DNA from: a phage
Assembly (NCBI GenBank): GCA_012164735.1
Contig: GCA_012164735.1_4544.1
Strand: one strand, 5' to 3'
Length of the DNA stretch: 44,855 nucleotides
Shown piece by piece: positions 507 through 44,814 of the stretch. Positions within the stretch are counted from its first letter, which is position 1; every line of letters starts with the position of its first letter. A program made the translations under genes and the position numbers. Under the pieces are notes generated by a model. It was not told the origin of the DNA. It ran no database searches and saw only the letters and a list, made by a program, of their open reading frames with translations.

Positions 507-2771
507 ATGAGCTTAATTAAATTCGCTGTAACAAGACCCGCTAAAAAAGGCGAAAAAGCCAGGGCGGAAAACTTCCAGATGACGACCGATGAATTTTTCG
601 AATTTATCAAAGATGCGAAAGAGATATCGTCGGTGCATATCAACAAGACGGAAGATAAAGCCGAGTATGCGCGCCGCAAGCGTAAGGCCGATGGCATCGT
701 AGCGTATACCAGTGACGGCTTACGCCGCAAGACCAGTGCGGTGGACCGCTCGATCCTGTTCTTCGATATTGACCGTACCGACACCCGCACCCTACGCCGC
801 TGCCGTAAGGCTTTCATCGACGCGGGGCTGGAGCACGTATTTCACACCACAACCGGCGACCGCCACCCGCTGAAAGGCGGCACGCGTTGCGCTCGTTTCC
901 TGGTGCTAACCGATAAGCCTGTACCGGCGGAAGACCTGGGCCGCGTACAGTATGCACTATTACACCAACTGGGCCTGTCAGATGTGGACTTCGATGATTG
1001 CACGAAAGACACAAACCGCCTGATGTACCTGCCACACCAGCAGTCTGTTATTAAGTGCCACTACGGCAAGCGTGCCCGCGTCCGTCGTCTGCTTCGCCTG
1101 GCGGATAAGTTGGGCGTGGATAAGGAGGAAGTACGCCGCGAGCTTACCCAGGGCGACGACGCAGTGGCAGACGGCATTCTGGACTGGTGCTTCCAGGCAG
1201 GATTCGAGGAGTTATCTTCCGGTCGCGGTTATGAAGTGCCGTGCCCGAACGAACATCTGCACAGCGGCGAAGGGTCGACGGCTATCATGGTCAAGGATGG
1301 CGAGATCCGTTTCAAGTGTATGCACACCGGCAACGAGTGTTGCTCGGAACTGAACAGACACCAGCACCTGGCGCTACGTCTTATCGGGATCCCGGACCAC
1401 CTGAACGTCGAACCACACAACATGTCACGTAAGCAAATCGCCGCCATCCTCCCCGGACTGGACGACGAGGAAGTGGAATCGTGCTATGCGCATATCGTTG
1501 ATGCGGTCGGAGACGGCGACGAGTACGGCGGATGTACTGATGCAGACCTGGACAACGAGCCGGTTGCGCTGTTCAGTAAGCACGACCCGATCATCGAGGG
1601 GTTGATTAACTTTAAATCGACCTGGTATATGGCGGGCGAGTCGAACATCGGTAAATCGTTCTACGTGCTGGGCCAAATGGGTGCGGTTGCCGCGGGGATT
1701 CCTTTCGGTGGTGCTAAGGTCGTCCAGTCTCATTGCTTCTATTTCGATGCGGAAGGTGGCGAAGCCTCCAACCAGCGTAAGGAAGCACTGCAGATCAAAT
1801 ATGAGCACGACCTGGACAAGCTGCACATTATCGACCTGCAATCTCGCGGCTGGGATATCACCAGCAAATCCGGCTTGCGTGAAGTTATCAGCTTCATCAA
1901 CCGCACCGCTAACGGCGAACCTGTTGGCCTGGTGGCGTTCGACTCTCTCAACCAGACTGTTGCGCTGCGGTCCGCCGATGCTAAACCGTTCGACGAGAAC
2001 AACGCCAGCGATATGGGCGAAGTGGTAAAAGCGCTGAAAGCCATCGCGGAAAATACCGGCGGCAGTGCTGGCGTCATCCACCACCCGGCGAAGGGTGCAA
2101 ACGGCAGCAGATCCCCCCGCGGGTCCGGCGCGCTGCATGGTGCTGTTGATTCTGCGTTCTTCCTGGAGCAACCGGACGACAACCAGCCAGGCCAATTGAA
2201 CCTGTATCACGAAAAGGCACGTAACGGCATCAAGCAAGCGCCGCGTGGCTTCGTCCTGCTCAAGTGCAAGGTGAAGGTAGATCTCCGCAAGTCAGAAGCG
2301 TTCGCGTCGCACCAGTCCACCAGCACCGGTCCGGACTTCGGAGACGTAGTTGCCGGTTGGGACGTCAAACCAATTGCGTCCACCCCGCGCGACGAGACTT
2401 TATACCTCGTACCGGTCGCCCTGGCACCGTTCGCTATAGAACAGGCGAAGGCCGCAGGAAAAGCCGCAGTTAAGGAAGAGAACACCGCCGGACCGCGCAC
2501 CGAAAAAGAAAAGGTACTTTACGCGGCGCTGGAAAAACTGATGGAAGAGAACCCGGACCATACCGGATTCAGTAAATCGGCGATTGTCCGCCAAGCGGGA
2601 CTTGCGAAAGGTGGCACATCGACGAAGGCAATCGACGATATGATCGAGCGCGGCGTACTCGGTTTTTATACAGACCCGCACACCGGGGCCATCTACGGGT
2701 CGTCGAATATCGTCATCAAAACGAATATACCCATCACGCTTTCGGCGACCGATGATGACTTAAAAGACTAA
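507..2771 (+). CDS. Replication initiator: archaeo-eukaryotic-type primase domain fused to RecA-like (Walker A/B) helicase, with C-terminal putative winged-helix DNA-binding domain
   Basis: 754 aa; FFDIDRTD and HVFHTTTGDRH motifs (AEP-like DxD / sxH); Walker A GESNIGKSF; Walker B-like LVAFDSLN; RBS aagg upstream. Confidence 0.7.
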   Translation: MSLIKFAVTRPAKKGEKARAENFQMTTDEFFEFIKDAKEISSVHINKTEDKAEYARRKRKADGIVAYTSDGLRRKTSAVDRSILFFDIDRTDTRTLRRCRKAFIDAGLEHVFHTTTGDRHPLKGGTRCARFLVLTDKPVPAEDLGRVQYALLHQLGLSDVDFDDCTKDTNRLMYLPHQQSVIKCHYGKRARVRRLLRLADKLGVDKEEVRRELTQGDDAVADGILDWCFQAGFEELSSGRGYEVPCPNEHLHSGEGSTAIMVKDGEIRFKCMHTGNECCSELNRHQHLALRLIGIPDHLNVEPHNMSRKQIAAILPGLDDEEVESCYAHIVDAVGDGDEYGGCTDADLDNEPVALFSKHDPIIEGLINFKSTWYMAGESNIGKSFYVLGQMGAVAAGIPFGGAKVVQSHCFYFDAEGGEASNQRKEALQIKYEHDLDKLHIIDLQSRGWDITSKSGLREVISFINRTANGEPVGLVAFDSLNQTVALRSADAKPFDENNASDMGEVVKALKAIAENTGGSAGVIHHPAKGANGSRSPRGSGALHGAVDSAFFLEQPDDNQPGQLNLYHEKARNGIKQAPRGFVLLKCKVKVDLRKSEAFASHQSTSTGPDFGDVVAGWDVKPIASTPRDETLYLVPVALAPFAIEQAKAAGKAAVKEENTAGPRTEKEKVLYAALEKLMEENPDHTGFSKSAIVRQAGLAKGGTSTKAIDDMIERGVLGFYTDPHTGAIYGSSNIVIKTNIPITLSATDDDLKD

Positions 2772-2843
2772 ATTCTGCGCGCATTGGTTGCCATTTTGAG
2801 TGTTTTTATCCAGTCGCATTGGTTGCCGTGTAGTGTAAATATA

Positions 2844-3049
2844 GTGAATAGTTATGCAGTTTTATTGCATAAACTAAGCGGGACAAAAAGCGGGACAAAC
2901 AAGGGGCGGGACAAAGCGGGACAGCACCCCAGTCCCGCCCCGGATGGCGCGGCTTCCGGAGGAGCGGGACAGCGGGACAGCACCCCAGTCTTTCAGACTA
3001 GACGGGGGTCAGCGGCCCCCCTCGTCTGAGACTGAATAAAATCCGGAGA
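2844..3049. repeat. Copy 1 of a ~206-bp duplicated non-coding element: GCGGGACA iterons (direct at 2878, 2890, 2906, 2916, 2964, 2972; inverted at 2932) plus a 67-bp imperfect palindrome (2983-3049)
   Basis: Direct comparison with 20071-20276; immediately downstream of the primase-helicase gene. Confidence 0.8.
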
Positions 3050-3251
3050 TTGCAAAATACACGGCAGCATGATGCGAAGTGCGGTCATGGATGAACTAGG
3101 CAACCAATGCGGGTTGTATTATGCTGAGTGAAAAATGCGGTTTGCAGTTGCAGCAGATAGCGATCAACTTTTTCATACGCATGATTAATATTGGTTGCAT
3201 TCAGCCTAGCACCCTGCTAGATTGGTTGCACACCAACATGAGGACTGAACA

Positions 3252-3557
3252 ATGAGAGCATTAATCTGGAAATACTCACGGGCCATAGCGAAGCTGGACG
3301 AAGCGAAAAACACAAACGGCAACGTAGACTATGCGCGCCAGTTTGCGGCACGGGCACACCAACACATCATGAGTGCGCTCGACGATATGGACGCCAGCAT
3401 GGATGACCTGGGTCCGCTGCGTAAGGCTATCCATGAATACGCGCTGGCATTCTCCCGTGAGCGCCTGGCCTATCGCTTCGGTATTGGCGATAAGGCAGTG
3501 ACAAACGTCGCCCGGATTAAAGCACAGCGCGAACTATTCGCCCAGCTTGCGAAATAA
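3252..3557 (+). CDS. Hypothetical protein
   Basis: 101-aa ORF with RBS gagga 8 nt upstream. Confidence 0.5.
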   Translation: MRALIWKYSRAIAKLDEAKNTNGNVDYARQFAARAHQHIMSALDDMDASMDDLGPLRKAIHEYALAFSRERLAYRFGIGDKAVTNVARIKAQRELFAQLAK

Positions 3558-8105: not shown

Positions 8106-8657
8106 ATGGCAGAAATCAAAGTTAAGGGCCGTCGTGCCAAACTGGACGGTCGAGTAGCAGTTACCCCGCGCCGTAAACCAGGCGAGCAAACAGAACACAC
8201 CAATCTTGGACCCGAGATCGAATACGGCAAGCGTCGTAAAGGCGGCAAATGTGGACGCCCGACCGACTACCGCACCGTGTATTGTGATCAGCTTCGTCGC
8301 TATTTCGCCGATGCCGTAGCCTGGCAGATCAACTACTCTGACAAGGGTGCTGCGCAAGTCATCCCTCACAACAAGATGCCGACTCTCGGTCGCTTTGCTG
8401 CGGATATTGGCGTTGGCATCGCTTGCCTGTACCGCTGGGCGCGTGCACATGAGGAGTTCGCCGAGGCGATGGCTGACGCAATGGAGTTGCAGAAAACTTT
8501 CTTGATGGAAGCTGGCGGTGTGACCATCGCGGCGGGCTTCGCTACGTTCCTGCTTAAAGCCAACCACGGCATTCGTGACGATGCGCCGCTGGATGACGAC
8601 GAAGGTGATAACGGCGACGTCGTTGTGGAACCTACCGGCAAAGGCCAGGGCGAATAA
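8106..8657 (+). CDS. Terminase small subunit (putative; start at ATG 8106 preferred over ORF-track start 8007)
   Basis: Immediately upstream of, and overlapping, the large terminase; RBS aaaggg; synteny. Confidence 0.5.
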   Translation: MAEIKVKGRRAKLDGRVAVTPRRKPGEQTEHTNLGPEIEYGKRRKGGKCGRPTDYRTVYCDQLRRYFADAVAWQINYSDKGAAQVIPHNKMPTLGRFAADIGVGIACLYRWARAHEEFAEAMADAMELQKTFLMEAGGVTIAAGFATFLLKANHGIRDDAPLDDDEGDNGDVVVEPTGKGQGE

Positions 8658-10042
8658 TGCGTAACTATGCGGCAGAACACCGCGCACTTGAACGCGCGAT
8701 CGCAAAGCGCAACCGACCGCCACGCCCTACGCGCGTTGCGCAGGCCGTCCGCCTGTATCAGCCTGATTGCCTACCGCACCAGGTGGAACTGCTGCGCGAC
8801 ACGAAGACTAAAATCCTCGGATTGTGTTCCGGCTTCGGTGGCGGAAAGTCGTGGGTCGCGGCGCGTAAGGTCATCCAGCTTCTCACACTTAACCCTGGTC
8901 ATGATGGCATCGTGACAGAACCGACTATTCCACTCCTGGTTAAAATCATGTACCCGGAGCTTGAGAAGGCTTTCGACGAGGCCGGATTCCGGTGGAAGTT
9001 CAACAAGCAAGATAAAATCTATAGCGTGCTGGTGAAAGGCAAATGGACCCGCGTTATTTGTGAGTCAATGGAGAACTACACCCGCCTGATCGGGGTTAAC
9101 GCCGCGTGGATTGTTGCCGATGAGTTCGACACCACGAAGCAAGACGTCGCTATGGCGGCTTACCACAAACTGCTTGGTCGTCTGCGTGCGGGCCTGGTAC
9201 GCCAGTTCGTCATCGTATCCACGCCTGAAGGCTTCCGGGCGATGTACCAGATTTTCGAAGTGGAGAAGGATAGCCAGAAACGTTTGATCAGGGCGAAGAC
9301 TACCGATAATCACCACTTACCGGCAGACTTTATCGACACGCTGCGCAGCCAATACCCGGCTAACCTGATTGATGCGTACTTGAACGGCCTGTTTGTCAAC
9401 CTTACGTCGGGCGCGGTGTACAAGATGTTCAACCGGGAGGAGAACGCCAGCACCGAAGAAGTGCAGCCGGAAGACACGCTGATTATCGGCATGGACTTTA
9501 ACGTCACGAAGATGGCGGCGGTCGTGTATGTCAGACGGCAGCGCATCACCGAAAACAAGGAGTTCCGCGACGAGATTCACGCAGTGGATGAATTTGTGGA
9601 CCTGTTTGATACCCCGGCTATGATTGAGGCGATCGAGGAGCGATACCCCGAACATTGTGCCGCCGGTAGGGTCGTCGTTTACCCGGATAGCAGTGGCAAG
9701 TCTCGTAAGACTGTTAACGCATCGTCGTCCGATATTGCGCAACTGGAAGACGCGGGCTTCGAGGTGGAATACGACAGCGTTAACCCACCTGTGAAAGACC
9801 GATTGATCGCGATGAATACGATGATGTGCAACTCGAAGGGTGTGCGCCAGTATTTTGTCAACCTGGATAAATGCCCTACACTAGCGAAATGTCTGGAACA
9901 GCAGGTTTACGACCTGAAGAAAGGCGAGCCGGATAAAACCGCCGGTGTGGACCACATGAACGATGCCGCGGGCTATCCAATTGCGCACCTGTTCCCAGTG
10001 ATTCGCCCAATCGCCGTTGTTCCAACTGTAGACTTCTACTAA
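8657..10042 (+). CDS. Terminase large subunit
   Basis: 461 aa; Walker A-like GFGGGKSW; position before portal. Confidence 0.85.
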   Translation: MRNYAAEHRALERAIAKRNRPPRPTRVAQAVRLYQPDCLPHQVELLRDTKTKILGLCSGFGGGKSWVAARKVIQLLTLNPGHDGIVTEPTIPLLVKIMYPELEKAFDEAGFRWKFNKQDKIYSVLVKGKWTRVICESMENYTRLIGVNAAWIVADEFDTTKQDVAMAAYHKLLGRLRAGLVRQFVIVSTPEGFRAMYQIFEVEKDSQKRLIRAKTTDNHHLPADFIDTLRSQYPANLIDAYLNGLFVNLTSGAVYKMFNREENASTEEVQPEDTLIIGMDFNVTKMAAVVYVRRQRITENKEFRDEIHAVDEFVDLFDTPAMIEAIEERYPEHCAAGRVVVYPDSSGKSRKTVNASSSDIAQLEDAGFEVEYDSVNPPVKDRLIAMNTMMCNSKGVRQYFVNLDKCPTLAKCLEQQVYDLKKGEPDKTAGVDHMNDAAGYPIAHLFPVIRPIAVVPTVDFY

Positions 10043-19252: not shown

Positions 19253-19269
19253 ATTGGAGAATTACATAA

Positions 19270-19631
19270 TGGCTAAATCACCACTCTTCACACTTGACCC
19301 TAAACCGACATTTAAGCTGCCGATTGAGATCCCGCGCCCTGGTGAGAACGAACCGGGCAAAATGACGTTTACCGTGCGCCACCGCCCTATCGACGAATTT
19401 TCGCAGACCATGCAGGACACTGAGCGCAAATTGTCGGAGTATGACGACAATGACCCGGAAGGATTTAACGTTATGGTCGAGGCCATCATGCACGTCGCTG
19501 AAGGCTGGAATTTGCCGGACGAATTTAATGCTGCCAACGTCCGCCGCCTGGTGGTCAACTACCCGCGCGCGTTCGGCGTGTTCCATACGTCGTACTATCT
19601 CGAACTGATGGGGTTGCGTGAAAAAAACTAA
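19270..19631 (+). CDS. Tail assembly chaperone (lambda G-like), zero-frame product
   Basis: Position before tape measure; ends at a slippery site. Confidence 0.65.
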
Positions 19632-19945
19632 TTGAGGCGGCGCGACGCTTTTATGGCCCGCCGCCACCCTCCGAAGATTTAGCTGCGAGTTTATGGGGCG
19701 CGACCCCTGAAGATGTTTGCCCGCCGGTTGCGCTATGGCCTGACAACGCGAAGGTAGTCGCCGTCTTCACTGATTGCTCCACGCAATGGCGCACCGGATT
19801 CGGTGGCGCATACGGCATCGACTACGGTGTACTGGAATGGCTATTTAAGATGCACGGCATCGAAAACGCGCAACGTGCGTTTAAAGATATCAAGCTAATG
19901 GAACGCGTTGCGCTGGATGAAATGGCGCGGCAGAACCACGCATAG
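19270..19945 (+). CDS. Tail assembly chaperone GT-like fusion via programmed -1 frameshift at A_AAA_AAC (19622-19628)
   Basis: Open -1 frame from 19628 to stop TAG 19943-19945 (105 codons) directly after a canonical slippery heptamer. Confidence 0.55.
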
Positions 19946-19949
19946 CGGA

Positions 19950-20276
19950 GCGGGACAGGCGGGACGTCCCGTTTTGTCCCGCCACAATTAAACCGCATAT
20001 ATACTCACTTTCATTGCATAAACTAAAAGCGGGACAGGGGAGCTGTCCCGATCTGTCCCGCACCCAAAATGTGAATATCTATTCAGTTTTCGTGCATAAA
20101 GTAAGCGGGACAAAAAGCGGGACAGAATGAGGCGGGACAAAGCGGGACAGCACCCCTGTCCCCGTCAGTGCTGCCGCGGGTTTTAGCCGATCGGGACTGG
20201 CGGGACAAACCCCAGTCTTTCAGACTAGACGGGGGTCAATGGCCCCCCTCGTCTGAGACTGAATAAGGTTTGTTTT
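19950..20276. repeat. Copy 2 of the duplicated element and additional iterons: GCGGGACA direct at 19950, 19959, 20029, 20105, 20117, 20132, 20142, 20200; inverted at 19975, 20044, 20054; 67-bp palindrome at 20210-20276
   Basis: Counted directly; 20071-20276 aligns with 2844-3049. Confidence 0.8.
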
Positions 20277-20284
20277 AAATTCGC

Positions 20285-20293
20285 TGATACAAT
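20285..20293 (+). promoter_or_regulatory. Extended -10 promoter candidate (TGaTACAAT) preceded by TCGCTGATA, upstream of tape measure gene
   Basis: TG 20285-20286, TACAAT 20288-20293. Confidence 0.35.
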
Positions 20294-20329
20294 GACCGAC
20301 GGCAACTGCATAAAAAGGGGGACTGCATA

Positions 20330-22975
20330 ATGGCAGATCAGGCAGCGGGCATCACGCTCAAGGCGGACGTCGCGCAAATCAAAACGGCTAATACTGTGCT
20401 GGACACATTTGCGCAGAAATCCGAGAACACAGAACAGAAAGTAAAGAAGTTAAACGACACACTCGGCAAGTCGAAAAAGGTTACTGGCGACGCCGCTGGC
20501 GGAATGGAAAAGTTAGCGACTGAATCGCAGCGCGCCGCCGACGGCATGACGAAACAGGAGCGACTCGCCAGCCGATTAGGCATGTCGACCAAAAACCTGG
20601 GATTTGCATCGCGGAACGCCGCATTCCAGTTACAGGATATCGCGGTGACGCTTGAAATGGGTATGCCGGTGCATCGAGTCATGCTTCAGCAGCTACCACA
20701 GCTTACGGGGGCGTTTGGCGGGTTGGGGAATACGCTGCGTTATGTCGTCGGCACCCTCGGCCCGTTAGGGATCGGCATCGCTGCATTAACGGCAACGATG
20801 GGCGTTGGCGTGTCGATTATGTCCCGCGCGGAAAACCAAGTGGCGGCGCTTAACAAGACGCTGGCACTGTCCGGTAATATTTCTGGCCTCACCGCTAACC
20901 AGATCCTGGTGCTATCCGAGAACGCCGAGCGGATGGGCGGATCATTCCGCAAGACGCGTGACACCATTCAGTCACTGGCGGCGGCTGGTGTGAAAGCGGG
21001 TGCGGACTTCGGCGCACTGGCGAAGGTGGTGAATGACTTCTCGAAGGTGTCCAGCCAGCCGATCGAAGATGTGGTCGCGGCGGTGGCGAAGCTGTCAACC
21101 GACCCGGTAGGCGGCTTGCGCGCACTGGCGGATAAGTATCACGTTGTAAACGAAGCGCAGATCCAGCAGGTGCAGTCGTTGGTGGATATGGGGCGCGAGA
21201 CAGATGCGGTTGCGTTGGCTAACAAAACCGCCGCCGCGTCGTTCACCACTATGACCAACGATATCAAGGCGAACATGGGTACGCTTGAGCGATCTATGAA
21301 CGTCGTCACATCGGCAGCTAAATCCATGTGGGACGCCATCCTGGATGTGGGTCGCGCGCAGTCCTCCAATGAGTCAGAGATGAAAGCGCGTGAATCCTTG
21401 CAGCGCATGACCACTGCTTACTATGCCGAGATGAAAGCGGTAAACGCTGCCGGTGGGGTAATGACTGAAGCGCAGAAAGCACGTATTAACATGCTTTATA
21501 GCGAACTGGTCGCCCAGGAGAAAGTAGTGGCGTCGCTCACCATGCGTAACCGTGCGGAGCGTGACAACGCCCGTTCCGCGGACGAATCCGCAAAGGCGAA
21601 CGAGGAGGCCAACCGCACCGCCCGCGACCGCGCTGCGTTCGAGAAGGAGTACGCGACCAACGCGAAGAAGCGCGCAGACGAGATCGCCCGCCTCAATTTG
21701 CTGAATAAACGCGGCGTAATTGATGAGAAAGAACTAGCCGAGGCGGTGAAGCAGGTAAACGAGCGCTACAAAGACCCGGCCCCGAAAAAGGCCGCGGCTG
21801 TTCGCGTGGATGCCGGTATGAAAATGCTGGAGGTTGCACGGAGCGAACTGGCCCAGCTTCGAGAATCCGGCAAGCAGATCGAAGCCAACGCGTCTACGCA
21901 GACCCGCACGCAACGCGCTCAAGCGGCCTTAAACAAGCTGATCGCCGACAATGAGCAGTTAATCGTCGCGAGCAAAGAAAGGGCGCTAACGGCAGCAGAG
22001 AAGCAGCAGATGGTCGAATTCGGACGCGTGAAGGAAGTGCGCGAGCAGATCGTCGAAGAAGCCAAATTGCTGGACGCGAAAGAGAAGCAGGTTAAGGCGC
22101 ACGCGCAGATCGATGCCTTCGTTAAGAACCAGAACGCCGAGCTAAAAGCCACCGCGGCTGGCTATGCGCTTTCCACTCGAGAAGCGGCAAACCTGCGTGA
22201 AGAATTGCAGCTAATCGACCGCCTGAAGCGTGTAGGCGCTAACGATACCGATATTGACAAGGCGGTGTCTAAGCTGCGGGAAGTGCAGGAGGCGCAGACC
22301 GGCGCTAACGCCTCGCTATGGGATGGATTCAGTCGCGGGCTTAAGGATAGCGTGGATGAGATGGGTAACGGATATACGCAGATGACGTCACTCACAAAAT
22401 TCACGTTCAGCGCTATGCAGGACACGATGAACGAATTTTTCGAGACGGGCAAGCTGAGCGCGAAGGATATGGTTAAGTCCATCCTGAGCGAATTAATCAA
22501 GCTAGCTACCTCGCAGGCGTTCAAATCCGTCGTTAGCGCTTTCGGCGGTGACGGCGGCAAAAACGGATTGTTCGGCGCTATCTTCTCCGGCCTCACTAAG
22601 AACGCAGACGGCGGAGCGTACGCAGGAGGCAACCTCGCGGCCTATTCGGGGCAAGTGGTAAGCCAGCCTACCTTTTTCAGCTATGGCGTCCAGGCGTTCG
22701 CGAAGGGCGCAGGATTGATGGGTGAGGCTGGACCCGAGGCAATCATGCCACTGAAGCGCGGGCCGGATGGGAAACTGGGCGTTGCCGCTGCCGGTGTTGG
22801 TGGGGGTGGGATGATTGTAACGACCAACGTGAACATGGGGACCGGTAAAACGGACACCAGTGTGAGCGGACCGGACCCACGCACCGCGCAGGCGTTCGGC
22901 AAGCAAATCACCGAGTCGGTCAAGGCTGAGATCGTGAAAGCGACGAAACCGGGTGGAGTACTTTACAAACGATGA
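20330..22975 (+). CDS. Tail tape measure protein
   Basis: 881 aa, Ala/Gln-rich helical; follows G/GT; length implies a tail of roughly 130 nm at about 0.15 nm per residue. Confidence 0.85.
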   Translation: MADQAAGITLKADVAQIKTANTVLDTFAQKSENTEQKVKKLNDTLGKSKKVTGDAAGGMEKLATESQRAADGMTKQERLASRLGMSTKNLGFASRNAAFQLQDIAVTLEMGMPVHRVMLQQLPQLTGAFGGLGNTLRYVVGTLGPLGIGIAALTATMGVGVSIMSRAENQVAALNKTLALSGNISGLTANQILVLSENAERMGGSFRKTRDTIQSLAAAGVKAGADFGALAKVVNDFSKVSSQPIEDVVAAVAKLSTDPVGGLRALADKYHVVNEAQIQQVQSLVDMGRETDAVALANKTAAASFTTMTNDIKANMGTLERSMNVVTSAAKSMWDAILDVGRAQSSNESEMKARESLQRMTTAYYAEMKAVNAAGGVMTEAQKARINMLYSELVAQEKVVASLTMRNRAERDNARSADESAKANEEANRTARDRAAFEKEYATNAKKRADEIARLNLLNKRGVIDEKELAEAVKQVNERYKDPAPKKAAAVRVDAGMKMLEVARSELAQLRESGKQIEANASTQTRTQRAQAALNKLIADNEQLIVASKERALTAAEKQQMVEFGRVKEVREQIVEEAKLLDAKEKQVKAHAQIDAFVKNQNAELKATAAGYALSTREAANLREELQLIDRLKRVGANDTDIDKAVSKLREVQEAQTGANASLWDGFSRGLKDSVDEMGNGYTQMTSLTKFTFSAMQDTMNEFFETGKLSAKDMVKSILSELIKLATSQAFKSVVSAFGGDGGKNGLFGAIFSGLTKNADGGAYAGGNLAAYSGQVVSQPTFFSYGVQAFAKGAGLMGEAGPEAIMPLKRGPDGKLGVAAAGVGGGGMIVTTNVNMGTGKTDTSVSGPDPRTAQAFGKQITESVKAEIVKATKPGGVLYKR

Positions 22976-30407: not shown

Positions 30408-30487
30408 GTTATCATCTCCTATATTTGGTTGAGTTTTAGTATTACACCGCTCGATCAAGAATGCAACCAATTTATGAGGATTTAGCT

Positions 30488-32242
30488 ATGGCAGCGGGTA
30501 CACTATCCGTAACGAATAACAGCACCGCGGTGACTGGAGACGGCACAACGCTTACCGCGCTGAAGGCGGGCGACTTCCTGTCGCTGGTAGTAGGGCAAGT
30601 CCCTTACACTATTGCTATTGCATCCATTGAGAGCGACACCGCGCTTACACTGGCGCTGCCGTTCGACGGCCCAACGGCAACCGGCCTCGCATGGGATAGC
30701 GTGGCGCGCGATACCATGTCCCTTGCAACGATGGGCGTAACCGTCCAGGCGCAGAAAGCACTACGCTTGATGATCGCGGATGAGAACAACTGGCGCGCAA
30801 TCTTCGGCGACGATGAAGAAATCACAGTGACGTTACCTAACGGGCAGGTTATGCAGGGCATGTCATGGGGCTATCTGTCACAGTTGATGAAACAGATCGA
30901 CCCCGTTGAGATGCGCAACCTGCAACAACAAGCCGCCGCATCTGAAGCAGCCGCGCAAGGATTTCGTAACGAGGCTGAAGGATTTCGAGACGGCGCGCAA
31001 GGATACCGCAACGAGGCGCTCCAATTCCGCACCGACTGCGAAGGGCTGAAGAACGAAACGACAAACCTTCGCAACGATGCGCTCCAATTCCGCACCGACT
31101 GCGAAGGGCTGAAGAACGAAACGACAAACCTTCGCAACGATGCTAACACAGCTAAGACTGGCGCGGAGACGGCACGCGATCAGGCGCAGAACATCGCCGA
31201 CGGTATGGACCCTGGACAGTATATGCAGAAATCTGCAAACCTGAGCGATGTAGTGGATAAGGCGCAAGGCCGCGCGAATATGGGTCTTGGCACTACAGAT
31301 GCCGTGGAGTTTGGTGGGGCCACCCTCAATGGTCCCACCCGCATCAATGGCTCGTTGCTGTTGGGGCGTAACCAGTGGGATGGGTCTAGCTGGGGGGTCT
31401 ACGGACTACAATCGTCATTCGTCATCATGTCGCCGGATGGAGACTCCGAGCCGGGATTTTACATCAGGCCGCTATCGGGTGCGCCTGGGTACGCAACGTC
31501 GTTCACCTATAATCTCGCGATTAATCTTTTCAGCACCGGTGCTCGCATCAAGGCGGTTAACTTCGCATCCAGCACTACGACTATGGGATATAACGAGATG
31601 TGGTCACGTGCATGTTTCCAGGGGCAGCCATACGAAGCCCAGGCGGGGGTTGAGAACTACCAATCGCTTGTCGCAGGTACTTGCGGTACGGTATCACACG
31701 GATTTTACGGTGGCGTTGCGTTCGGCATGATGACTGCTGGCAGGGCTGGGTGGCCTGTCGGTCAGATCTCGATCGGCACGCAGGACAGAGCCGCTGACGG
31801 CACTATCGGATTACAAATGCACTTCCGTTTCCATGCATCCGGTAACATTACGTATACGGGGCCGGCGGGGAAGGGGTCATTCCAGCGAATCCCGGCATCT
31901 GACCGCAACATTAAGCATGATATTAAAGACGATAAATCCAGCACAGCATACGATAACATTCGAGCCATTCGATTCCGTAATTTCGTATTTAATGATGACG
32001 AGCAGGAGCGTATTCGTCGCGGGGTTATCGCACAGGAGCTTGAAGAAATCGACCCGCTTTATGTTAAGCACCGCGAATACCACAACATGGAGCTTAACGG
32101 GCCGAAGATTACGCGACTGGAGCTTGACACGACGCCGCTGTTACTGGACACAATGCGAGCGTTGCAGGATACGATTAAGCAGGTGGAGGAGTTGAAGGCG
32201 GAGATCGCGGCGTTGAAGCAGGCGGAAGAGTTGAAGAAATAG
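30488..32242 (+). CDS. Tail fiber with coiled-coil repeat region and C-terminal intramolecular chaperone (self-cleaving, peptidase S74-like) domain
   Basis: Start at ATG 30488 with RBS gagga; 63-bp perfect tandem repeat 31018-31143; C-terminal SDRNIKHDIKD motif from 31898. Confidence 0.75.
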   Translation: MAAGTLSVTNNSTAVTGDGTTLTALKAGDFLSLVVGQVPYTIAIASIESDTALTLALPFDGPTATGLAWDSVARDTMSLATMGVTVQAQKALRLMIADENNWRAIFGDDEEITVTLPNGQVMQGMSWGYLSQLMKQIDPVEMRNLQQQAAASEAAAQGFRNEAEGFRDGAQGYRNEALQFRTDCEGLKNETTNLRNDALQFRTDCEGLKNETTNLRNDANTAKTGAETARDQAQNIADGMDPGQYMQKSANLSDVVDKAQGRANMGLGTTDAVEFGGATLNGPTRINGSLLLGRNQWDGSSWGVYGLQSSFVIMSPDGDSEPGFYIRPLSGAPGYATSFTYNLAINLFSTGARIKAVNFASSTTTMGYNEMWSRACFQGQPYEAQAGVENYQSLVAGTCGTVSHGFYGGVAFGMMTAGRAGWPVGQISIGTQDRAADGTIGLQMHFRFHASGNITYTGPAGKGSFQRIPASDRNIKHDIKDDKSSTAYDNIRAIRFRNFVFNDDEQERIRRGVIAQELEEIDPLYVKHREYHNMELNGPKITRLELDTTPLLLDTMRALQDTIKQVEELKAEIAALKQAEELKK

Positions 32243-41073: not shown

Positions 41074-41856
41074 TTAACGGCGGCGACGTTTACGTGGCGC
41101 TTCGTCTTCGTCGTCGTCCTCATCTTCGTCATCGCGTGGCTTACGACGTTTGCGAGGTTTTTCATCTTCCTCATCGTCGTCGTCATCGCGGCGCTTGGAT
41201 TTCTTGGACTTGCGCGGCTTGTCATCTTCATCATCGTCATCACGACGTTTTGACTTTTTGGACTTGCGCGGTGCTTCGTCTTCGTCGTCGTTGTCCAGGT
41301 CTTCATCGGAGCAAGAAGACCCGCCACCTCCGAAGGCTTCGCCGTCTTCACGGAATCGCAGACCCAGCAAGCCAGCCCCGAGACCCTTGCCGTTGGTATT
41401 GTTCCATGCCCAAATATCAAGGGACACGTTGCAATAACAACCGGAGTAGATCTCCTGGCCTTCAATCTCGTCGCCGTCGATGGTCAGACCTTGTTCAGTC
41501 TGCTTCTCGCCGAGTGACGTTTGAATGATTGGTTGTTTGAACGATTTGGCGTTGATATACAACATGCCTTCGAATTCTTCGGTTACTTCATCGCGCTCGT
41601 CGCCGTCGCGAACTGCACATTCCTTAGAATCCTGGGCGTAGTGGCGGTCCATCCACTTATCGGCATTCTTCTCGGATTTCAGCTTATCGGTGAGCACTGC
41701 GCGCGCTGCCGCTTCCACTTTATCCACCTGCGGATCTTCTTTATCCAGAAGAATCACGGCACGGTATGCCGGTTTTTGTCCATCCTGTTTAGGGGTATCA
41801 CGTTCCCAAATTTTCAGGAAGCATACGCGCACATTTTTCAGGTTGACTTTAGCCAT
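41074..41856 (-). CDS. Single-stranded DNA-binding protein-like (phage SSB-type fold) with long alternating basic/acidic repeat C-terminal tail
   Basis: MAKVNLKNVRV ... YSGCYCNVSLDIWAWNN ... FGGG core; C-terminus of PRKSKKSKRRDDDD-type repeats; RBS gagga. Confidence 0.55.
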   Translation of the reverse strand: MAKVNLKNVRVCFLKIWERDTPKQDGQKPAYRAVILLDKEDPQVDKVEAAARAVLTDKLKSEKNADKWMDRHYAQDSKECAVRDGDERDEVTEEFEGMLYINAKSFKQPIIQTSLGEKQTEQGLTIDGDEIEGQEIYSGCYCNVSLDIWAWNNTNGKGLGAGLLGLRFREDGEAFGGGGSSCSDEDLDNDDEDEAPRKSKKSKRRDDDDEDDKPRKSKKSKRRDDDDDEEDEKPRKRRKPRDDEDEDDDEDEAPRKRRRR

Positions 41857-41911
41857 TTTCCAATTCCTCATTTTCACATGTATCGGGGTTATTGTGAGCC
41901 ACCCCGTCCGG

Positions 41912-44100: not shown

Positions 44101-44619
44101 TTAATCTTCCAGTTCGAAATAGGTTTCGACGATTTCTTTTAACTCTGTGTGGAAGTCTTCGACGTCGTCATCTTCCAGCTTGGCGATTGATTTGATCTCG
44201 AACGATTCCAGCAGGTCGTCGAATTCGTCGTTCGCATCGTCGTCATCACCACCGGCGATAATCGCGGCATACTGTTTGATTTCGTCGCGCATCTCCGCCA
44301 GCGGATCGGCATCTTTCTTACCTTTGCCTTTCGCCGGTGCTTTTTTAGCCTTAGCCGGTTTTTCGTCTTCGGCTTCTTCGTCGTCGTCATCTTCTACGAC
44401 TTCTTTTTTGGCCTTACCTTTCGCCGGTGCTTTTTTAGATTTAGCCGGTTTTTCGTCTTCAGCTTCATCGTCGTCATCTTCGACAACTTCTTTTTTGGCC
44501 TTAGACGGCTTCTTGTCTTCCTGTTTACCAACGGCAGCGCCAACGGTTTCATAATGCTTTGCAATGGTTTCCAGTGCTACTACGCCGCGAGTGATCAGGT
44601 TTACGATTTGCTCAAACAT
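44101..44619 (-). CDS. Highly acidic protein with two ~34-aa tandem repeats (start at ATG 44619); first gene of the minus-strand block
   Basis: RBS ggag; KKEVVEDDDDE ... KPAK ... KKAPAKGK repeated twice; ~100-bp DNA direct repeat 44320-44520. Confidence 0.55.
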   Translation of the reverse strand: MFEQIVNLITRGVVALETIAKHYETVGAAVGKQEDKKPSKAKKEVVEDDDDEAEDEKPAKSKKAPAKGKAKKEVVEDDDDEEAEDEKPAKAKKAPAKGKGKKDADPLAEMRDEIKQYAAIIAGGDDDDANDEFDDLLESFEIKSIAKLEDDDVEDFHTELKEIVETYFELED

Positions 44620-44814
44620 GGTATATCTCCGATTGGTTAAGTTTAGGTGTCGGCAGTTAACTTCGTCGGTGGCCTTAACATATTGCCAGGTTACGCGTTC
44701 TCCCGTTCGGGTAGTGGACCTGGTTATATAATCACGGTTGGGAATCCTGACACTTCGATCCGGCCCCTGCGTTGCCCCTCTCCAGTTTGCGTCCTGCATC
44801 CTGTCGACGGAGTG

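Follow-up and report, generated by a model that had tools for sequence, protein, structure and literature searches.

A duplicated iteron and hairpin module beside the helicase-primase gene, a probable DNA-level replication-origin element of Dhillonvirus phages

The phage DNA analysed here (contig GCA_012164735.1_4544.1, 44,855 nucleotides; "the window" refers to this whole stretch) is that of a Dhillonvirus, i.e., an HK578/SO-1-like siphovirus of Escherichia coli, and it carries a long imperfect palindrome in two nearly identical copies, which is the subject of this study. By BLAST, region 2700–3300 matched 159 phage records at 87–99% identity, mostly at two places per genome, and nearly all of these records are Escherichia or Shigella Dhillonvirus phages (HK578, SSL-2009a, EP23, JL1, Sodalis phage SO-1, BASEL Bas14–18 and Bas83–85). 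The gene map agrees with that of the annotated relative Bas84. On the plus strand, a helix-turn-helix (HTH) gene (167–496) is followed by a helicase-primase gene (507–2771), small genes and the lysis, terminase, head and tail genes, up to about 29.2 kb. One palindrome, copy B, belongs to intergenic region B (2772–3251), which adjoins the 3′ end of the helicase-primase gene and begins at its stop codon; the hairpin starts 215 nt past the stop codon, after an array of iterons. The other, copy A, lies in intergenic region A (19946–20329), a 384-bp gap that is unusual within the tail operon and is flanked by the genes for the tail assembly chaperone G/GT (19254–19945) and the tape-measure protein (20330–22975). 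Neither region is assigned a strand. Both have been marked since 2009 in the SO-1 GenBank record, under the same names ("region B" as a repeat_region), as direct, inverted and palindromic repeats. A literature search found no paper tying Dhillonvirus or Guernseyvirinae to iterons or an origin, and no mention of the repeats was found in the HK578 and SO-1 literature.

The hairpin core is an imperfect palindrome of 49 bases in both copies, at 2986–3034 (copy B) and 20213–20261 (copy A), and is likewise given no strand. In copy B, the arms read CAGTCT-tt-CAGAC-ta-GA-c-GGGGG and CCCCC-c-TC-GTCTG-AGACTG around a variable apex (3009–3015); copy A is the same except for two apex bases, i.e., GC at 3012–3013 vs. 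AT at 20239–20240, and 55 of the 57 positions of 2983–3039 are identical to those of 20210–20266. The original prediction had described a 67-bp repeat with two substitutions. Both copies and the two apex differences are indeed present, but the last ~10 nt of that repeat (3040–3049 vs. 20267–20276) are not homologous, since the homology between regions A and B ends at 3039/20266 on the 3′ side, and on the 5′ side it extends to 2844/20071. The 18-mer CAGTCTTTCAGACTAGAC is restricted to the two palindrome sites in the window, even when three mismatches are allowed (0.03 hits expected). A third palindrome of the form AGTCT-N4-AGACT was seen at 9699–9712, within a 461-aa open reading frame (ORF, 8657–10042), and is probably due to chance.

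The predicted folding of copy B comprises four helices with about 20 bp in total (2986–2990/3030–3034, 2993–2998/3024–3029, 3001–3002/3022–3023 and 3004–3010/3014–3020). The palindrome folds at −28 to −37 kcal/mol as RNA, with z-scores of −2.4 to −4.2 relative to shuffled sequences, and at −13.4 to −14.1 kcal/mol as DNA, with z-scores of −3.4 to −4.1 on both strands; the plus and minus strands of the window palindrome are of roughly equal fold quality. The long imperfect hairpin proposed earlier is therefore borne out by both RNA and DNA folding, with two refinements: the inner arms gacggggg/ccccc..gtc represent one of two near-equivalent registers, and the small AGTCT-TTC-AGACT hairpin, whose pairing does exist, competes with the long hairpin as an alternative rather than adding to it. 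The conservation of the element is far above chance. Over 38 distinct modules, it amounts to ~100% for the 3′ arm CCCCCCTCGTCTGAGACTG and to 30–80% for the apex; the 5′ arm is 100% conserved by construction, as the set was retrieved by means of it. The arms are nearly invariant although the whole module falls to 83% identity, and they are retained even in a relative whose helicase-primase is only 68% identical.

The palindrome is the last part of a module of ~196 bp, which in both copies has the order conserved box, array of GCGGGACA iterons, palindrome, confirming the earlier view that each iteron cluster ends, on its 3′ side, with the palindrome. The two modules (2844–3039 and 20071–20266; families D2, D9 and D10) are collinear with no insertion or deletion, at a spacing of 17227, and are 78–89% identical. 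The conserved box GTGAATAGTTATGCAG...TGCATAAACTAA forms the 5′ edge of module B (2844–2877, plus strand) and has region A counterparts at 20071–20104 and 19986–20026 (families D6 and D10). In region B, the iteron array (2878–2979, plus strand; family D9) consists of six exact GCGGGACA copies and one inverted degenerate copy (2931–2938), and it ends 6 nt before the palindrome. The array of region A (19950–20207, no strand assigned; families D8 and D9) contains ~12 repeats of the GCGGGACA type in both orientations, nine of them exact, and two palindromes built of iterons (19950–19982 and 20029–20061). Compared with the six exact copies in region B and nine in region A, merely four are scattered over the remainder of the 44.9 kb.

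Both module copies are kept in 14 of the 14 genomes examined. Region A is 83.5% identical to region B within a genome and 82.4% between genomes, vs. 89–90% for A–A and B–B comparisons. Concerted evolution of the two regions was considered and ruled out, as the within-genome A–B identity is about the same as that between genomes. This lack of homogenisation indicates that the duplication is old and that both copies are under purifying selection.

Two boxes accompany the module in every lineage, regardless of the iteron type: CACGGCA(G/A)C, 3′ of the palindrome (3040–3075 in the window, ~4040–4085 in contig L131, and also in L146 and L149), and the upstream box GTGAATAGTTATGCAG. Each may be a binding site for a conserved phage factor or a factor of the host; a reading as DnaA boxes was not supported. 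Some assemblies break at or in the element: contig L118 starts 96 nt before the tape-measure gene, and record PP759150 (HH3) ends within the palindrome. Such breaks are most simply explained as assembly artefacts of a ~200-bp two-copy repeat rather than as physical ends.

The same breaks, by which a number of metagenomic contigs and database records start or stop in or close to the element, could be taken to suggest a site recognised by terminase for packaging (cos/pac), and iteron-like repeats beside a symmetric site recall lambda cosB/cosN. However, cutting at two identical sites that lie 17 kb from each other would fragment the genome, and contig breaks are to be expected from assembling a ~200-bp repeat. 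In addition, the 10-nt 5′ cos end of the Dhillonvirus EE09 was mapped by PhageTerm, and its record was reordered to begin there (PMC10673088). The EE09 helicase-primase gene is located at 31.9–34.3 kb of this record, which places both regions several kb or more from the termini, and neither region of the window has the EE09 cos sequence nearby. A role in packaging is thus very improbable.

The comparison with more distant relatives links the module to the helicase-primase gene. The next-closest helicase-primases (43–46% identity) belong to Guernseyvirinae, i.e., phiEap-2, Cornellvirus W5/FSL SP-031, Serratia phages Tsm2/Otaku, Klebsiella phage VLCpiS11a, Hafnia phage TS33 and Pantoea phage AH01, together with metagenomic relatives. 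In all of these, a long intergenic region with the same module architecture lies directly 3′ of the helicase-primase gene, and the 16-mer that forms the 5′ box of the module is also found ahead of the iterons in the Guernseyvirinae relatives. The module adjoins the helicase-primase gene in at least nine lineages besides that of the window, a linkage that crosses genera. In Jerseyvirus, Kagunavirus and Bas75-like phages, the helicase-primase gene is followed by a reverse-strand gene and the module was not found there, and a metagenome scan with the 28-nt box returned no new lineages. The sister phages carry a single module, in the B position. In phiEap-2, there is one iteron cluster and no region A, and the tape-measure gene overlaps its upstream neighbour; this arrangement indicates that region B is ancestral and region A a Dhillonvirus-specific duplicate. 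The position of the palindrome just before downstream promoters, which had been pointed out earlier, therefore appears incidental, with copy A inserted into the tail operon and no copy at that place in the sister phages.

While the scaffold is conserved, the iterons differ by lineage: those of the Guernseyvirinae are CGGACAA, CCGACA, GGGGGAGA, AGGGA, TTCCGCACA and TTGCGAGT, and a Dhillon-like lineage (L165/L166) uses GTGTGGCA, vs. GCGGGACA in Dhillonvirus. A long imperfect hairpin follows the array in every lineage compared. When arm covariation was examined across these homologous lineages, as the original prediction had envisaged, the arms were found to change with the pairing kept. The outer or small-hairpin arms are AGTCT/AGACT, TCATC/GATGA, TCCTC/GAGGA or CTCCT/AGGAG, the inner stem is GGGGG/CCCCC, GGGTG/CACCC, GGTGG/CCACC or GTGGG/CCCAC, and the outer arms of the Tsm2 type are ATGCTACT/AGTAGCAT, ATGCTCAC/GTGAGCAT and CGATCAC/GTGATCG. 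Pairing survives the arm changes in nine lineages, and 164 of 166 cells are paired in the helix segments, which were chosen by hand because MAFFT misaligned the 3′ halves; the automatic alignment with RNAalifold gave only the small 5′ hairpin, and a permutation test on the helix segments had little power, with 3–6 variants per helix. In the Tsm2, Otaku and VLCpiS11a lineages (L130 3935–4050, L153, L154 3270–3340 and L169), the 49-nt hairpin is replaced by a GC-rich structured palindrome of 67–112 nt with the common block GCCAAGCGAACGCA and compensatory outer arms.

The apex of the hairpin provides a connection to the iterons. In four lineages, the exact lineage iteron is present at the apex, as TGTCCG in phiEap-2, TTGTCC in L146/AH01 and TGTCGG in L149. 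Between the apices of phiEap-2 (TCTGTCCGA) and L149 (TCTGTCGGA), the only difference is the base at which their iterons, CGGACA and CCGACA, also differ. An apex that copies the lineage iteron ties the hairpin to the iteron binder, and a function as RNA only leaves it unexplained. A related arrangement was observed in an unrelated high-GC contig, L128, where ~13 CGGGACAA repeats lie directly 3′ of the contig's own gene for a 752-aa helicase-primase and the array contains a 49-bp palindrome built of iterons. Arrays of CGGGACAA occur in two unrelated high-GC IMG/VR contigs, L128 (11490–11740; 3300015606_000838) and L129 (4600–4800; 3300043399_000952). The L128 helicase-primase is 26% identical to that of the window in the ATPase core only, and no C-terminal similarity was detected in that comparison.

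These data bear on the possibility that the hairpin acts as RNA in read-through transcripts, i.e., as a terminator or attenuator without a U-tract, a protective 3′-end hairpin, or an RNase III site like those between T7 genes. Both copies lie between co-oriented plus-strand genes with no predicted terminator upstream and are thus probably transcribed, the RNA fold is stable, its ~20 bp with bulges are of the size of an RNase III substrate, and the arm pairing is retained across lineages. A T-rich stretch also follows the hairpin in some relatives (L146, TTTTATTC; L169, ATATTTTTT). However, a U-tract is missing in the window and in most lineages: the sequence just after the hairpin is GAATAAAATCC (copy B) or GAATAAGGTTTG (copy A), neither of which is a U-run. 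Scans of the window and three relatives detected no terminator and no sigma-70 consensus promoter at or beside the palindrome, in line with the earlier statement that the element is not a classical intrinsic terminator; the sole terminator-like matches in these scans were minus-strand hairpins composed of iterons. The "terminator" annotated in phage CS16 proved to be an iteron hairpin of that kind, in which the palindrome is not involved. An Rfam search, at both gathering and permissive thresholds, returned nothing relevant to the palindrome. Furthermore, the antisense strand folds better than the sense strand in every Guernsey lineage, by 2–8 kcal/mol, which hints against a sense-RNA function, and the arms are nearly invariant within the genus with zero neutral pair swaps, which points to sequence-specific recognition. 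Because an RNA element has no reason to track a DNA-binding repeat, the apex copy of the iteron also disfavours RNA readings. The element is thus probably not an RNA regulator, and a role as an RNA processing site or 3′-end hairpin, which the probable read-through transcription of the region makes possible, seems unlikely, at perhaps a one-in-several level of plausibility.

A special case of RNA function had been put forward in the original prediction, namely that of a cis-acting antiterminator RNA like the put sites of HK022, which modifies the transcribing RNA polymerase. Two near-identical copies per genome, as for putL and putR, and a stable RNA structure would suit this proposal. It did not hold up, as put comprises two stem-loops and only a single hairpin is present here, no promoter-like site is found just upstream on either strand, Rfam gave no match, the sister phages carry one copy only, tied to a replication gene, and the loop co-varies with the DNA iterons. 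We consider this the least credible of the explanations. The other option offered at that time, a protein-binding cruciform, fits better than put, since the element is always accompanied by an iteron array 3′ of the helicase-primase gene and the apices of the sister lineages carry the iteron. The earlier interpretation is thus partly supported, in that the cruciform idea holds and the put-like idea fails.

A different DNA-level role would be that of a transcription control region, in which the iterons and the palindrome serve as operator or activator sites, e.g., for the HTH protein encoded at 167–496, and switch the downstream operons (the small and head genes after region B and the tail genes after region A). 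Promoter-like sequences can be recognised by eye at the operon starts, TTGCAT-17-TAGATT at 3195–3223 and TGATACAAT at 20285–20293. A protein with an HTH_23/Sigma70_r4_2 domain match is encoded beside the helicase-primase, and the concerted change of all four arm segments in each lineage is what would be seen for the half-sites of a co-evolving dimeric regulator. However, a separate dispersed motif that is associated with promoters, ATTGGTTGC, suits a regulator better and is absent from region A. It occurs in 16 exact copies and, with at most one mismatch, in 27 hits vs. 12.5 expected, a number reached by none of 100 shuffled sequences. Its places are intergenic and promoter-like: 2783, 2818, 3100(−), 3190, 3221, 3755(−), 6465(−), 14354(−), 14367(−), 30463(−), 33472, 35134(−), 35151(−), 38102(−) and 44823, where (−) denotes the minus strand. 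Two copies flank the promoter-like TTGCAT-17-TAGATT, and ATGTTGGCTG is found at equivalent places in the Guernseyvirinae relatives. A phage regulator, possibly the HTH_23/Sigma70_r4_2 protein itself, probably uses ATTGGTTGC as its operator, and this protein is more likely tied to the genome-wide motif than to the iterons. In addition, the upstream HTH families differ (HTH_23/sigma-r4-like in Dhillonvirus, HTH_3 in Guernseyvirinae) and yet the module architecture is shared, the iteron clusters of the sister phages lie beside the helicase-primase gene only, with none before the tail genes, and operators seldom have a nested layout of three helices with bulges. A transcription operator is thus possible, but it is less economical than an origin and, in our judgement, improbable.

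The gene next to the module encodes a protein of 754 aa (507–2771, plus strand) that matches Pfam AAA_25 with an E-value of 2e-19 and PHROG 3228, "replicative helicase-primase". Its N-terminal domain is primase-like, with invariant D87, D89 and H120 (DxD/H) and Cys/His residues. The N-terminal domain of one relative matched BT4734-like_N, and no match of this domain to RepB′ or to a primase in the PDB was found. The central domain is a helicase of the AAA_25 (RepA) type, with a weak match to RSF1010 RepA (1g8y). For the C-terminal part, an AlphaFold model based on a 43-sequence alignment gave predicted local distance difference test (pLDDT) values of 79–89 and the topology H-b-H-H-b-b, and the Foldseek matches listed for it were mostly winged-helix proteins (MarR family, linker histone H1/H5, the Rio2 N-terminal domain, the origin recognition complex (ORC) and LexA), albeit with weak E-values of 0.014–0.4. 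Residues ~666–737 (2502–2717, plus strand) thus form a predicted winged-helix domain and are a candidate iteron binder. Among lineages that differ in their iterons, the protein varies most in its C-terminal ~100 residues, with 47–54% identity vs. 72–96% among Guernsey lineages, and a C-terminal motif, GGGNxRRR...EDDRHxxFR, is common to the lineages with CGGACA-type iterons. On the basis of this model, it is plausible that the winged helix of the helicase-primase binds the iterons. A homology of the C-terminal domain (2424–2768) to BurrH, a protein resembling transcription activator-like effectors (TALE-like, PDB 4cj9), was discarded as a sum of weak repeat matches; the profile match runs through the motif GFSxSxIVKxAGxxGG with a summed E-value of 2e-20, each repeat being weak, and may reflect a mere shared helix-loop-helix motif.

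An iteron array and a structured element near such a gene have experimental precedents. In the plasmid pRN1, the origin is a stem-loop immediately past the 3′ end of orf904, which encodes a primase/helicase/winged-helix protein; replication requires this stem-loop to be intact, and similar stem-loops are found 3′ of the replication gene in Bordetella phages BIP-1 and BPP-1 (PMC4234260). In RSF1010, the ssiA and ssiB hairpins beside the iterons are recognised by its primase, and the alpha protein of phage P4 binds iterons through a winged helix (PMC4234260). Like pRN1 and the two Bordetella phages, the window has a structured element 3′ of a multifunctional primase/helicase/winged-helix gene, with pairing conserved among relatives. 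However, the pRN1 stem-loop is ~100 nt long and has no iterons, whereas the window has a 49-nt hairpin after an iteron array of ~100 nt, and the pRN1 helicase belongs to SF3 rather than to the AAA_25/RepA type. The RSF1010 (IncQ) oriV is similar in its iteron array beside conserved hairpin-forming DNA, its RepA/AAA_25-type helicase and its own primase, and the strong conservation of the hairpin is as expected for sequence- and structure-specific recognition of the RSF1010 kind. A stable, conserved hairpin in single-stranded origin DNA, as in ssi-type sites, is also what the DNA fold and the ~100% conserved arms of the window palindrome provide. In RSF1010, RepC binds the iterons, the RepA helicase unwinds and the RepB′ primase then acts, whereas in the window the initiator, helicase and primase are apparently fused in one protein of 754 aa; RSF1010 has two ssi sites on opposite strands, whereas the window has one palindrome per module, of which both strands fold.

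P4 alpha binds its iterons at two loci, ori and crr. The window resembles P4 in its multifunctional primase-helicase with a C-terminal winged helix (predicted here) and in the clustering of the same short iteron, direct and inverted, at two loci. It differs in that P4 has a Toprim-type primase, no conserved long palindrome is known at the end of its ori and crr, and the two loci of the window are 17 kb apart, with one inside the tail operon. A lambda-type ori combines iterons with an AT-rich region and a palindrome next to them, and the core origins of SV40 and papillomaviruses contain palindromic arrays of initiator sites where a helicase double hexamer assembles. In these systems, as in the window, initiator repeats lie beside a dyad-symmetric element, and the sister lineages place the initiator site at the centre of the dyad; this is a resemblance only, as the initiator families differ and no AT-rich unwinding block is evident in the window. 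In common with the iteron origins of P4 (ori/crr), RSF1010 (oriV) and a staphylococcal pathogenicity island (SaPI ori), the window has at least three clustered repeats, an adjacent helicase gene and a predicted DNA-binding domain.

Judged from these sequence comparisons, the palindrome probably acts at the DNA level as part of the origin from which the phage replicates. Region B, next to the 3′ end of the helicase-primase gene, would be the ancestral and putative primary origin. Its GCGGGACA iterons may recruit the helicase-primase via the C-terminal winged helix, the complex would assemble at the adjacent palindrome, and the duplex would be opened there. Extruded as a cruciform, or folded into a hairpin on the freed strand, the palindrome may then give the helicase and primase domains of the enzyme a structured site at which to enter or to prime. 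Region A, as an old duplicate, would serve as another origin or, like P4 crr, as an enhancer in cis. A more specific proposal, which we regard as tentative and rather less probable than the origin assignment, is that a fused primase–helicase–winged-helix enzyme recognises the hairpin as its own signal for loading and priming, with its DNA-binding domain reading the iteron at or beside the hairpin tip.

Several observations weigh against assignment as an origin. The compensatory hairpin changes alone cannot separate a DNA structure from an RNA structure or from half-sites bound by a dimer. The apex in Dhillonvirus proper, including the window, is variable and is not an iteron, so that the apex argument can be carried over to the window solely by homology. 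A clear AT-rich unwinding element was not identified, and the GC skew follows the direction of transcription and gene orientation, marking neither region. The conserved box TGTGAATAG looked like a DnaA box, but this reading was rejected, as sites with at most one mismatch are not enriched in the window and none occurs in region B. Regions A and B are probably transcribed, being situated between co-oriented genes, and an added or alternative RNA role is possible. With respect to the iteron binder, overall C-terminal identity in the Dhillon-like lineages fails to separate GCGGGACA users from GTGTGGCA users, with few helix residues differing, and the small HTH protein (167–496) is an alternative candidate.

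Elsewhere in the window, a minus-strand block at 32.3–44.8 kb constitutes a T7-like replication set with DNA polymerase A, a gp2.5-like single-stranded DNA-binding protein (SSB), an exonuclease and a helicase. A tandem duplication of 63 bp, in perfect register and 98% identical, is located at 31007–31132 within a 593-aa ORF (30461–32242) that is a tail-fibre homologue. Two minus-strand ORFs, 41074–41877 and 44101–44799, contain many short acidic/basic repeats (periodic, of the GTC/GTCATC type; families D1, D3 and D4), and one of them gave a weak BUD22-like low-complexity match.

The element is best filed as an uncharacterised member of the known iteron-plus-hairpin origins that adjoin a primase-helicase gene. 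The duplicate in the tail operon, the lineage-specific iterons on a conserved scaffold and the iteron at the hairpin tip in the sister lineages are points of moderate interest. If the hairpin does act in loading and priming, origin specificity would evolve by swapping the tip iteron along with the array, Dhillonviruses would have two such origins, one of them in the tail operon, and Dhillonvirus and Guernseyvirinae would share a compact "iteron-in-hairpin" type of origin that is hitherto undescribed. These phages are among the most frequently isolated coliphages and Salmonella phages and are used in the BASEL collection, phage therapy and engineering. A defined origin module of ~200 bp, with lineage-specific iterons, a conserved hairpin and the cognate winged-helix helicase-primase, would offer a handle for phage-derived replicons, could help to explain incompatibility or exclusion among related phages, and would allow the co-evolution of origin specificity with the initiator to be studied.

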